Positions 1,767 to 40,499 of a stretch of 64,000 bases of DNA are shown in pieces. This stretch comes from a virus. The notes below the pieces were generated by a model, which saw only the letters and a program-made list of their open reading frames with translations, was not told the DNA's origin and ran no database searches. Made by a program: the position numbers and the translations under genes. Position 1 is the stretch's first letter, and every line of letters starts with the position of its first letter. The stretch is taken from positions 1 to 64,000 of IMG/VR virus record IMGVR_UViG_3300049846_001717; one strand, 5' to 3'.

Positions 1767-3365
1767 TTACTGGCTCTGTTGAATCAATTTCATTGCGGCT
1801 TGGTGCGCGGCATGATCAGCCGGATATTTCAGTGCCGACTTGACGAGAATGTCATTGCCCGTGTCAGGGTTTTTGACTTTCTGGTTCATTACGTCCGTGT
1901 CGGAGGTAATGCTACCTGTTTGTTTCTCGTATTCCTTCTGAACAATGACCAACGCTTCATCAGGAGTCAATCCTGGATTTGCATACCACGCGTCTTCCAC
2001 AGCACTCAATAGATTCTTGATGATTGGACCCGGTTTGATACCCAAGGTTCGCATGATATCATTGCCATTGATAGGCAATGTGGGCTTATTGGCGGACAAG
2101 GCCATACTGGACCGTAGAGTGTCCATGCGGTGCTTGATGAATTCGATTTGGTTGGGCATGGAAGCATGTGCTGAATGCGATACATTGTCCGCTTGCATGG
2201 TTTTCAGCGCCGCATCCAAATCATCACCGAGGTCGGCCATGAACTTTCGGATGGCCTTGTCACTGATACCCGTGCCATCGGGACCGGCGGGCTTGAGTCG
2301 CATGTGTTCTTTGACAATTTTCGCCACCGAATTGATTTGATCCAACGGATATTTCAATCGGCGCATAGCCTCATTAGCAATTTCCGATCCCACATCCTCG
2401 TGTCGATAGAAATGAACACCGGTTTCATCCTCACTTTTCGTTTGAGGTTTGCCAATGTCATGAAATAACGACGCCAATCGGGCAGTGATGTCCGGTTCTG
2501 TGTTCTTCAACACTTTCATGATGTGATTGAACACATCGTCATCATGATACGCATTTTGGGACACACCCACGCACGCGTTCAATTCAGGTAGAACGTGTTT
2601 GTTCAATCCGGTAAAGACCAGCAACTTGATGGCCTTATCCGGTGCATCCGTCATCAACATCTTGTCCAATTCTTCTCGTACACGTTCTTTTGAAATGGTC
2701 TGTAACATGTCAGCATTCTTTCGTAACGCCTTGACCATGGAAATGGGCATCTTCCAATTGTATTTTACAGCAAATCGAATGGCCCGCAACATACGAAGCG
2801 GGTCATCTTTGAACGTAGAATCAGGATCCATCGGTGTTCGAACGATACCATCACGAATGTCGCTCAATCCCATACCCGTGAGATCCAAAACTTCGCCAGT
2901 GGACAGATTTTTGAAGAGTGAATTGACCGTCAAATCTCGACGAAAGGCATCTTCTTTCAGATCGGCGAATATTACTTCAGGCTTTCGGGAATTCTTTTCG
3001 TATGTCTCACCACGCGTCATAACCGATTCGATATCCACGTTGGATAGGTCTACCCCATTGTGTGTGACACCCCGAAGATTGAATTTTGCCGTGCCAAATC
3101 GCGGAAATACGACCGGATTGGCACCTTCGCGGAACGCCCCCACACGGCGGGTGATCCAATTCGCAAATGCAATACCACCGTCGGGCATAGGAATAACGAC
3201 ATCGATATCCTTAACGGGTTTGCCGAGAATTTGGTCGCGCACGGCACCACCGGCCAGCATGACCTTTCCTTCGTACGGAGTACCTTTCAATATCTTTGAA
3301 AAATAGTCCAACGCGGCGTCTTCTTTAGACGCATAATTCTCCAGCAACAATCGAAATCGGATCAT
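1767..3365 (-). CDS. cca: CCA tRNA nucleotidyltransferase with HD domain
   Basis: GGAVRD..KDIDV, EDAFRRDLTVNSL, DDPLRMLRAIRF, SKERVREEL, LFHDIGKP. Confidence 0.92.
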   Translation of the reverse strand: MIRFRLLLENYASKEDAALDYFSKILKGTPYEGKVMLAGGAVRDQILGKPVKDIDVVIPMPDGGIAFANWITRRVGAFREGANPVVFPRFGTAKFNLRGVTHNGVDLSNVDIESVMTRGETYEKNSRKPEVIFADLKEDAFRRDLTVNSLFKNLSTGEVLDLTGMGLSDIRDGIVRTPMDPDSTFKDDPLRMLRAIRFAVKYNWKMPISMVKALRKNADMLQTISKERVREELDKMLMTDAPDKAIKLLVFTGLNKHVLPELNACVGVSQNAYHDDDVFNHIMKVLKNTEPDITARLASLFHDIGKPQTKSEDETGVHFYRHEDVGSEIANEAMRRLKYPLDQINSVAKIVKEHMRLKPAGPDGTGISDKAIRKFMADLGDDLDAALKTMQADNVSHSAHASMPNQIEFIKHRMDTLRSSMALSANKPTLPINGNDIMRTLGIKPGPIIKNLLSAVEDAWYANPGLTPDEALVIVQKEYEKQTGSITSDTDVMNQKVKNPDTGNDILVKSALKYPADHAAHQAAMKLIQQSQ

Positions 3366-24816: not shown

Positions 24817-24841
24817 GCGTATCTACCTGTGTCAAAGTGAA

Positions 24842-25194
24842 TGGATCCGGGCGGAATCGAACCGCCGTCCGAAATACCGTACTAACAGTATCTTCTCCGT
24901 GCGCAGATGGGTGTCTTATTTCGGTGTACGATGTCACACTCATCGAAGCCATCGTACACCTAGTTCATAAGGCATTCATACGATATGAACGTCTCGTATG
25001 AATTTACTCATCTATCGGTTTCCCGTTCCGTCAATTCAGTACGATGAGAGAACTGAACGAGGATTCGCATACTCTTAAGCAGCGAGAGGAAGTGCTGTGT
25101 TTGCACTTGAATTTTTGACGACAGTTACGGATGTACGTCCTTTCCGGCACGCTTCATTCTGTGTTCGTGTTTCCGTCGAAACCAGGTCGGACCC
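24842..25194 (-). ncRNA. ssrA: tmRNA, tag (A)ANTALPLAA*
   Basis: 5' GGGTCCG..GGTTTCGAC, 3' GGCGGTTCGATTCCGCC-CGGATCC-A, G3:U pair, tag ending LAA-TAA; no encoded CCA. Confidence 0.93.
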
Positions 25195-29530: not shown

Positions 29531-29602
29531 AGCTCGTGGCGAGGCTTGAACTCGCTTCTTTCGTTTTAGAGACGAAGGCACCGGCCGATATACCACACGA
29601 GC
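29531..29602 (-). tRNA. amber suppressor tRNA (CTA)
   Basis: Full cloverleaf, TTCGT-CTCTAAA-ACGAA, U73. Confidence 0.85.
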
Positions 29603-30096: not shown

Positions 30097-30170
30097 TAGC
30101 GGAGGTTGGATTTGAACCAACGTCCTTCCGGTTATGAGCCGGACGCGCTGCCGGGCTGCGCCACTCCGCG
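30097..30170 (-). tRNA. initiator tRNA-fMet(CAT)
   Basis: C1:U72 mismatch, CGCGG 5' end. Confidence 0.88.
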
Positions 30171-30219
30171 TCAATGTTACTTTAACTGTCGAACTTTGAT
30201 CTCATACGTCCCTGTGGGG

Positions 30220-30555
30220 GTTGGATGCCAATAGCCAGGATTCTGTATAATGACAATCATTTGACTCAGTCCTCTTGCGAGGACCGCCCCACGTTTATAG
30301 TGAGGTGCTCTCAACCCGATACCTTTGGTCAGACGGACCCGTATCTGCTCGAGATTGCAGCGCCTATCCTGTCGCCCGTTTCATCCACCGCGTTATCGTG
30401 GCTCGTTTCTGTTGCCGTGACTCCATTTCGGAAAATACGAATTTCTCCATAAGATTCCTTATAGGGGAGCAGCTTCCACTCTAGGCTGTCTTGTGCTGTC
30501 CTGAACTTCCTCAACGTACAATCTAGTGTACGCCGCGATTGTCTAGGCATCCAAC
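30220..30555 (-). ncRNA. rnpB: RNase P RNA
   Basis: P1 GTTGGATGCC/GGCATCCAAC, P2 GACAATC/GATTGTC, CR-I GAGGAAGTTCAGGA pairs with CR-V ACAGAATCCTGGCT (P4), CAACAGAAA, TGAAAC. Confidence 0.88.
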
Positions 30556-30648
30556 TGTTTTACGATGTCCCGCAATTCCTTCCATTCGTCCTTCGTGAAT
30601 TCCGAACCATCCTTGTACATCGGACCGACAAACGTGTCACCCGAATGT

Positions 30649-30677
30649 AGTCTAACATGTTCGATGAACTTTGTCAA
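30649..30677 (-). promoter_or_regulatory. sigma70-type promoter upstream of RNase P RNA
   Basis: TTGACA-17-TAGACT. Confidence 0.65.
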
Positions 30678-30834
30678 GAGCGATTTGTAGTTCATTGTAA
30701 TCCTTACTTCTTGGGAACTTATACTGCATGGAGAGGTCAGGTGCTAGCCATGTCTGGCAGAAGGTGTCTTAGTAGTCTTGCAGGCATCCCTGTAGTGTCT
30801 ATAAGCATAATCTTCTTTTGCATACCTGACCAAG

Positions 30835-30907
30835 TCGGAAAGACAGGACTTGAACCTGCAACCCCCTGGTCCCAAACCAGGTGATCTGCCAATTGATCTA
30901 CTTTCCG
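30835..30907 (-). tRNA. tRNA-Pro(TGG)
   Basis: Cloverleaf. Confidence 0.92.
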
Positions 30908-30916
30908 AGTAGAGGG

Positions 30917-31791
30917 GAACGGGCTGAGAATACACCCGTTCTAGTCATCCTTTTGAACCATTATCCATCCCACATCCCTGTGAGACGTTCGATTCGTTTC
31001 CACGGTGACTCTCACCGTCGATGACCACAGCGACCTTTTTTAAAGTGTGGCGTTTCACTTGTCGTCTAGCACTTCTCGACACTTCTCCTACCGTCTGCCT
31101 TGCGAGCAGTACACAGTCGCTAAACCGTTACGTGCGGGTCTATATCGAAGACTCTCTGGCTTGGGGCCATCGAATCCGCCGTCTTCCTTGCGGGACGGCA
31201 TTACGCTGTTTATCATGCTTAGACCGAGGAAGTCTTTCCGTTTTTGGATTCGTATGATGGATTTGAACCACCATTAAATTGTTAATAGCAATGTGCCTTA
31301 CCGTTAGGCAAATACGACTTTGAACGAAGTGCTTCCTCAGTTGTTCCAATGACTTTTGATCATCAGAATGCAACACTCCGCGGCTACCGTTCCCCCTGAA
31401 CAGGGTACTACGTCATACGTCACGAACTCGGGCTGGCCTCTTAATAGCGGACAGCTCAGTTCATTAGTATTCCTGTGAAGCTCTTGGTTTCAAGGCCTCG
31501 AACCTCACAAGTATCTGTTACCTATCTGTTCTCGCGTGTGGGTTGAAATGGAGCCCGGCACCACCCGTCAGACTTCATGAACTTGCTTTCCTTCCCGAAG
31601 GAAGGGGCGTCAGCCCACGTTTTTCCCATTTCCACGCTTCGAACCTATCACCGAACCTTCGCCCGATGCTACTGGCTTCGAACCAGTAAAGGCCAGACTT
31701 GTTTGGATGAACCGTCTTGCGACGGCCCGGGTTACAAAGATAGCCCGGTTTATAGGCCTTACGACCTACTGTTCTTACGGAGTCCAAACAC
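30917..31791 (-). ncRNA. GOLLD-like large structured RNA (~875 nt)
   Basis: No credible ORF, many GNRA/UUCG hairpins, GTGTTGCATTC..TCAAAAG..GAACAAC, 3' hairpin GAACGGG-TGTATTCTCAG-CCCGTTC, embedded tRNA; family recalled from memory. Confidence 0.7.
31245..31318 (-). tRNA. degenerate tRNA-Asn(ATT) embedded in GOLLD-like RNA
   Basis: TCGTAT/ATACGA, D arm, ATTG-CTATTAA-CAAT, TTCAAAT loop, CCA. Confidence 0.6.
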
Positions 31792-40355: not shown

Positions 40356-40429
40356 TGGACACCACGGGAATCGAACCCGTCACATCGTCATTGCGAATGA
40401 CAATCGCCACCCTTGGTACATTGGCGCCC
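40356..40429 (-). tRNA. tRNA-Ala(CGC)
   Basis: G3:U70. Confidence 0.82.
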
Positions 40430-40499
40430 GAGCCCGCAACCGGCGATGTCCCGGCGAGTTGACCTCCCTTCAACTCTTTCATGCGGCGGATTATTTCAA

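Follow-up and report, generated by a model that had tools for sequence, protein, structure and literature searches.

Few ribozymes are common to all cellular life; RNase P RNA, which trims the 5' ends of tRNAs, is among them, and to our knowledge its gene has so far been described in cells and organelles only. The stretch of viral DNA analysed here (the window, 64,000 nucleotides) covers positions 1 to 64,000 of an IMG/VR virus record 98 kb long (IMGVR_UViG_3300049846_001717; CheckV completeness 45%), and its minus strand encodes, at 30220-30555, a 336-nt RNA running from the 5' strand of P1 through the 3' strand of P1. The locus raises the question of whether a phage carries an RNase P RNA of its own and, if so, what that RNA would do in an infected cell.

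Identity and fold of the 30220-30555 RNA

The original prediction had named the locus a phage-encoded RNase P RNA from its letters and proposed comparison with the Rfam models by Infernal. In a sensitive-mode covariance search, the bacterial class A model was the best match within the RNase P clan (RF00010, RNaseP_bact_a; 30217-30554, minus strand, model positions 1-367, 72.8 bits, E 3.5e-22), and a search of the whole 98-kb record returned the same match. An Rfam scan at gathering thresholds reported no RNase P family, as the score of the window RNA lies below the RF00010 gathering score of 100 although the match is full length; default Rfam annotation therefore overlooks such genes. Alignment to the model showed that the consensus motifs J2/3 CGC, GAGGAA, ACAGAAA, GGAUGAA, GCAA, CGGGU, AAUG and ACAGAA are kept. 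The proposed canonical fold contains 96 pairs, all of them standard, the RNA was more stable than 100 of 100 shuffles (z -3.74), and its centroid fold retained P1, P2, P3, P9, P15-P17 and P18. The structural elements are listed below by window coordinates, by RNA position (0 being window position 30555), or by both.

P1: 30546-30555 (GUUGGAUGCC) with 30220-30229 (GGCAUCCAAC), minus strand; 0-9 / 326-335; perfect 10 bp
P2: 30537-30543 (GACAAUC) with 30252-30258 (GAUUGUC), minus strand; 12-18 / 297-303; 7 bp
J2/3: GC directly after the P2 5' strand, minus strand; invariant
P3 hairpin: 30513-30534, minus strand; 21-28 / 35-42; 8 bp including 2 G-U pairs
CR-I GAGGAAGUUCAGGAC: 30498-30512, minus strand; contains the 5' strand of P4 with its bulged U at 30504
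CR-V ACAGAAUCCUGGCUA: 30232-30246, minus strand; 309-323; contains J2/4 and the P4 3' strand
P4: minus strand; 48-50, 52-56 / 315-322; 8 pairs and bulged U51 in the standard register
P5: minus strand; 57-60 / 194-197; 4 positions per strand
P6: 30488-30491 (AGAC, J5/7) with 30331-30334 (GUCU, P17 loop), minus strand; 64-67 / 221-224; 4 bp at the homologous place
Specificity domain: 30362-30486, minus strand; 69-193; P7, P8, P9, an extra hairpin, P10, P11 and a short P12
CR-II AACAGAAACGAG in J11/12: 30402-30413, minus strand; aligns to the model consensus ACAGAAA and is conserved in L152, L153 and L155
CR-III GGAUGAAACGG: 30376-30386, minus strand; placed by model alignment and comparison with relatives
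J5/15 GCAA: 30355-30358, minus strand; 197-200; invariant in every alignment
P15-P16-P17 arm: 30309-30354, minus strand; 201-246; L15 loop GGGUU (3' side) at 30313-30317
Extra 6-bp hairpin between P15 and P18: 30287-30305, minus strand; 250-268; among the compared sequences, in the window RNA only
P18 with GCAA tetraloop: 30268-30285, minus strand; 270-287; covaries, and relatives carry GNRA loops
CR-IV / J18/2: 30259-30267, minus strand; 288-296; AG..AAUG kept in the model alignment

The catalytic-domain helices P1, P2, P3, P5, P15-P17 and P18 are thus all present. The perfect 10-bp P1, P2, P3 and P4 with its bulged U, read earlier from the sequence, all lie on the minus strand where they had been placed, and the CR-II- and CR-III-like motifs are likewise found. 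The specificity domain has P7-P12 and the CR-II/CR-III module; P13/P14 is absent, 44 model positions being reduced to 3 nt here and similarly in L152, L153, L155 and L178. The L15 GGU, partner of the tRNA 3'-CCA, is present, with CGGGU invariant. On its 5' side, the P15/16 loop of the window RNA has GAGCA where the model has AAAUAG. The P6 pairing of the window RNA (AGAC/GUCU) is only 4 bp long and no better than in chimeras; in relatives P6 reaches up to 8 bp and comprises 27 distinct strand pairs, for example GAAC/GUUC and GAGC/GCUC.

The most altered part of the core is P4. In the fixed bacterial-consensus register, GAGGAAGUUCAGGAC and ACAGAAUCCUGGCUA form the canonical 8-pair helix with the bulged U unmoved; departures from the canonical sequence affect four pairs, three changed on both sides and one turned from G-C to U-G. 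Two highly conserved bases adjacent to the metal-binding bulge are altered, changes that we take to correspond to A67 to G and G68 to U in E. coli. Together with the changed 5' side of the P15/16 loop, these bases could alter catalysis or CCA binding.

Distribution and covariation of the variant-P4 family

Relatives were sought with gapped CR-I...CR-V patterns of the exact variant; a scan with the single 14-mer CR-I gave mostly chance matches. The exact variant was found on 24 IMG/VR contigs, many of them 100-500 kb long, at spacings of 114-277 nt, and on a further 11 metagenome contigs, the two sets together amounting to a family of 30 distinct RNAs, 158-359 nt long. Within 185,579 species-representative cellular genomes the pattern occurs five times, one occurrence lying on a misbinned contig identical to a 455-kb phage contig. 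The genome matches L147-L150 were set aside as chance, being without GAGGAAG, ACAGAAU and the P1 helix. A blastn search of the window RNA against 50,697 deposited phage genomes returned no match, and neither did one with the canonical-type RNA L178.

The family follows tRNA arrays, not GOLLD or tmRNA. At least three tRNAs were located within 5 kb at 27 of 37 loci, all on the strand of the RNA, and at 20 loci a tRNA lies within 150 nt of it. The nearest PTH2-linked relatives of the window phage (L120-L123, including two complete genomes) are without any RNase P RNA, so that the gene is accessory, or dispensable, in this lineage. The cultured phages whose baseplate protein is most similar, Mel-JY01 and the Flavobacterium immuto phages, likewise have no RNase P RNA.

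Several family members and related copies differ in size or setting. One short member (L057, 456-629, 174 nt) matched the RNase P clan unaided (45 bits, E 1.5e-9), with the archaeal model RF00373 as best model. Minimal RNAs of about 158-180 nt (L057, L128, L129, L131 and L132), carried on phage contigs of 24 to 380 kb, have no specificity domain, and in these RNAs the P6 pseudoknot forms between AUUUGG in the P5 hairpin loop and CCAAAU in that of P17. The public but unannotated 484-kb phage LR756508.1 carries a 226-nt copy (49 bits; L165:1501-1726, equal to 76010-76235) with CR-I GAGGAAGCUCUAGAU and CR-V ACAGAAUCUAGGCUA, sharing the GAGGAAG signature and showing further compensatory changes in P4; this RNA ends 1 nt ahead of a tRNA-Ser gene. 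A member with 61% G+C (L141, IMGVR_UViG_2522572155_000001) sits among 32 tRNAs on a 152-kb record of the IMG/VR provirus class that is 95% complete, and its host genome, if identifiable, could point to a culturable system.

Covariation was assessed with the strands of P1, P2, P3, P5 and P15 fixed in register by the invariant motifs. These helices are represented in the family by 25, 23, 26, 15 and 14 distinct sequences, respectively, and were 90-96% paired within an RNA (90% for P3) compared with 41-61% between RNAs. Under equal offset optimisation, P1 was fully paired in 19 of 30 RNAs and in 3.7% of chimeras, and P2 in 20 of 30 RNAs and in 6.3% of chimeras. RNAalifold, given the window RNA with L152, L153 and L155 and no prior structure, found P1, P2, P3, P5, P7, P8, P9, P11, P12, P15, P16 and P18, with compensatory changes in 37 of 63 pairs. 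A formal count over seven phage RNAs used the structure drawn from the window RNA and took in P2, P4, P5, P7, P8, P11 and P15, the helices that MAFFT held in register. Its 34 pairs were 100% paired against 81.9 +/- 1.7% in shuffles (0 of 500 equal), sliding the partners lowered pairing to 30-38%, and two-sided changes occurred in 19 of the 34. Across the seven sequences P2 was 100% paired, with both sides changed in four of its seven pairs; P7 and P8 were 100% paired with compensatory changes, and P15 was 100% paired with covariation. P4 was also 100% paired, four of its eight pairs being changed on both sides relative to three canonical-P4 phage RNAs of otherwise the same architecture.

These comparisons bear on whether the RNA is an inactive relic, a phage-captured copy of host rnpB that is now decaying. 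Such a history would fit the low covariance-model score, the loss of P13/P14 together with the insertion of extra hairpins, and the existence of related phages without the gene. We nevertheless consider it very improbable. Every helix is intact, and the fold is kept through compensatory changes in 30 distinct homologs, which requires selection. Moreover, the invariant core is conserved over a G+C span of 32 to 61% in the RNA regions of the family contigs, and the variant was found in no cellular genome. The evidence supports reading the locus, as originally predicted, as a phage-encoded RNase P RNA, one that is strongly diverged, near full size and still in possession of its specificity domain; the covariance-model match, the complete catalytic core, the covariation in 30 homologs and the phage context without rnpA all point to this identity.

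As a control, the canonical bacterial motif was put through the same search and matched 27 viral contigs. Approximately nine of these matches are host rnpB at or near provirus edges, with at most one tRNA nearby and an RNA G+C far above that of the locus. On the small provirus contigs L175, L184, L187 and L191-L194, canonical rnpB is found at the contig edge or close to it, and the RNA has 57-58% G+C where the locus has 39-45%; these edge copies probably represent flanking host DNA, with rnpB as a possible integration site. A further 10 of the 27 lie inside tRNA arrays, nine of which share the strand of the RNA throughout, and the eight RNAs that were scanned scored 181-280 bits. In-array canonical-P4 RNAs occur on viral contigs of 31 to 463 kb (L178:4030-4350, L183:4462-4786, L179:512-862, L181, L189, L197, L199 and L200). 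A match to the L197 query in a sequence named Microcystis phage MaAM05 (L201, MW495066.1 111323-119478) was not counted; there the rnpB-like stretch sits among fabI, engB, mtgA and glyS, and the region looks bacterial.

Three of the canonical-P4 copies (L178, L183 and L179) share the P13/P14-less specificity domain with the closest relatives of the window RNA, which indicates that the variant P4 arose within a phage lineage. A tentative extension, and on balance a rather unlikely one, is that the GAAGUUCAGGAC / ACAGAAUCCUGGCUA clade constitutes a phage-specific RNase P functionally separate from the host enzyme, for example through activity without RnpA, activity with some phage protein, or insensitivity to the effects of infection on cellular RNase P. 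Were it so, tRNA maturation would stay under the phage's own control, and the gradation in size from 336 nt down to about 160 nt would amount to a natural experiment on the minimal working RNase P RNA.

Genomic setting, probable protein partner and proposed function

The RNA is encoded within a minus-strand region (24.8-45.6 kb) that holds approximately 47 tRNA genes, tmRNA, GOLLD, a PTH2 peptidyl-tRNA hydrolase, an AAA ATPase and GroEL; similarity searches with GroEL gave no usable host signal. The genes most relevant to the RNA are as follows.

1767-3365, minus strand: CCA-adding enzyme (tRNA nucleotidyltransferase; phrog_2244, E 8.9e-59)
30097-30170, minus strand: tRNA-Met, 49 nt downstream of the RNase P RNA
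30543-30695, minus strand: 50-aa phage gene (phrog_21984, E 6.1e-10, full length), directly upstream of the RNase P RNA
30834-30907, minus strand: tRNA-Pro, upstream of the RNase P RNA

The TAG stop of the 50-aa gene falls inside P1/J1-2 of the RNase P RNA, so that mRNA and ribozyme share sequence. The RNA had also been credited with a promoter of its own, TTGACA-17-TAGACT. The motif exists at 30677-30649, but its status as a promoter is not supported, since such sites occur at chance level in the region (two against 1.4 +/- 1.0 expected). The minus-strand motif is a 10/12 match, lies inside the 50-aa gene and would leave a leader of about 85 nt before P1. We propose that the RNA is made within long minus-strand tRNA-cluster transcripts, in the order tRNA-Pro, 50-aa gene, RNase P RNA and tRNA-Met, and that it would be cut out of them.

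Other RNA genes of the cluster have features of their own. The GOLLD RNA (30921-31383, minus strand, 172 bits) lies 366 nt upstream of the RNase P RNA and contains an embedded tRNA-like gene (31245-31318); its counterpart in the syntenic relative L121 scores 143.5 bits, slightly below the gathering score of 150. The tmRNA (24839-25194, minus strand) encodes the tag ANTALPLAA, the tRNA at 29531-29602 (minus strand) has a CUA, amber-reading anticodon, and for a 96-nt tRNA-like gene at 40356-40451 (minus strand) ARAGORN calls a four-base anticodon.

Since large contigs classed as viral that carry many tRNAs, tmRNA and GroEL can be misclassified, and canonical rnpB was found at the edges of some IMG/VR provirus contigs, the contig might instead be cellular, from a reduced-genome bacterium or a misbinned fragment, with the RNA as that organism's own rnpB. 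We give this only the slightest chance. The window holds a baseplate wedge gene and PHROG-only genes and belongs to an IMG/VR virus record, rnpA is absent, and the RNA lies in the middle of a same-strand array of 47 tRNAs, as it does in other phage records with 94-100% completeness or terminal repeats.

The absence of RnpA from the window, noted in the original prediction, was borne out and extends to the whole 98-kb record, neither of which contains PF00825. Five further phage records that carry a family member likewise yielded no rnpA, completeness being at least 94% in four of them, and a search of the neighbourhoods for a recurrent protein family beside the RNA, as a possible novel subunit, found none. 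Because neither the phage nor its relatives encode an RnpA, the window RNA most probably borrows that of the host.

Taken with the conserved fold, this setting makes it likely, in our assessment, that the locus yields a working RNase P RNA that operates with the host protein subunit in maturing the pre-tRNAs of the phage itself. The RNA would adopt a bacterial type-A fold, its catalytic domain (P1-P6 and P15-P18) built with the CR-I/IV/V core around P4 and the bulged U, and its slimmed specificity domain (P7-P12 without P13/P14) presenting the CR-II/CR-III elbow-binding module. Partnered by the borrowed RnpA, it would remove the 5' leaders of the approximately 47 phage pre-tRNAs in the infected cell, supplementing or replacing the host enzyme. 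Service to the phage tRNA array fits the same-strand placement of the family in such arrays. The elements needed for ordinary pre-tRNA cleavage are kept (the P4 core, J5/15 GCAA, ACAGAA, CR-II/III and L15 GGU), and both the elbow-reading CR-II/CR-III module and the CCA-binding GGU of the window RNA are of the ordinary type; the specialisation for odd substrates suggested in the original prediction is not supported. Counting against a working RNase P, only three of the 46 phage tRNA genes encode CCA, the partner of L15. At the position just before the 5' end, 20 of the 46 tRNAs have U and 14 have C.

An RNase P-derived RNA might alternatively have ceased to be a general pre-tRNA 5' endonuclease and act as a decoy for host RnpA, as a regulator, or as a ribozyme redirected to the neighbouring GOLLD RNA, tmRNA or unusual tRNA-like transcripts. 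The changed bases beside the P4 metal-binding bulge and on the 5' side of the P15/16 loop would be in keeping with such a role, as would the lack of a phage rnpA, the proximity of GOLLD with its embedded tRNA and the tmRNA in the same cluster, and the smaller family members without an entire specificity domain. We judge this improbable, given that the P4 changes are compensatory and leave the helix and bulged U in register, that CR-II/III, J5/15 GCAA, L15 GGU and ACAGAA are retained, and that the family tracks tRNA arrays instead of GOLLD or tmRNA.

A working RNase P RNA of this kind would extend the set of translation steps supplied by phages to the maturation of tRNA 5' ends. The window locus, its 30 variant-P4 relatives and the 10 canonical-P4 in-array copies together show that large phages commonly carry the catalytic RNA and not the protein. 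They also form a natural series, from canonical copies of up to 280 bits through the 72.8-bit full architecture to the smallest RNAs near 160 nt. With its compensated P4 rewrite, this series lends itself directly to learning what is required in the ribozyme core.

Comparison with known systems

The open literature yielded no description of an RNase P RNA encoded by a virus. In targeted reading, viral RNase P RNA goes unmentioned in a jumbo-phage review (PMC13282480, 2026), an RNase P evolution study (PMC12974513, 2026) and an RNase P gene-finder paper. Huge phages are described as carrying tRNAs, tmRNA, SmpB and other factors, again with RNase P unmentioned (PMC7162821). The likeness of our locus to phage tRNA arrays, tmRNA and GOLLD lies in the shared neighbourhood and in the apparent logic of carrying copies of host translation-support RNAs.

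The closest structural counterpart is class A RNase P RNA (RF00010), exemplified by E. coli M1 RNA (rnpB) and the Thermotoga maritima P RNA. The window RNA and class A have in common P1-P6, P7-P12, P15-P18 and CR-I to CR-V, together with the P4 bulged U, J5/15 GCAA, L15 GGU, a GNRA-capped P18 and a covariance-model alignment over the full length. Unlike class A RNAs, the window RNA is phage-encoded, lies inside a tRNA array in a genome without rnpA and scores 72.8 bits against a threshold of 100. It also differs in being without P13/P14, in its very short P12, two extra hairpins and altered P15/16 loop 5' side, and in a P4 rewritten at four of eight pairs, including two normally invariant bases.

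Archaeal type A RNAs (RF00373) resemble the window RNA in having a specificity domain without P13/P14, whereas P18 and the bacterial P15-P17 arm, GGU loop included, are retained in the window RNA. Archaeal RNase P RNAs work with four to five proteins.

Reduced forms are also known, among them the minimal type T RNase P RNA of Pyrobaculum (PMC3012483, as cited in PMC7191817) and organelle-encoded reduced P RNAs (PMC4264200). These RNAs show that an RNase P RNA scaffold can do without the greater part of its specificity domain (PMC3012483 via PMC7191817; PMC4264200). The phage relatives of 158-216 nt (L057 and L128-L134) look analogous to these type T and organellar RNAs, whereas the window RNA is viral and is not minimal, having kept CR-II/CR-III and P7-P12.
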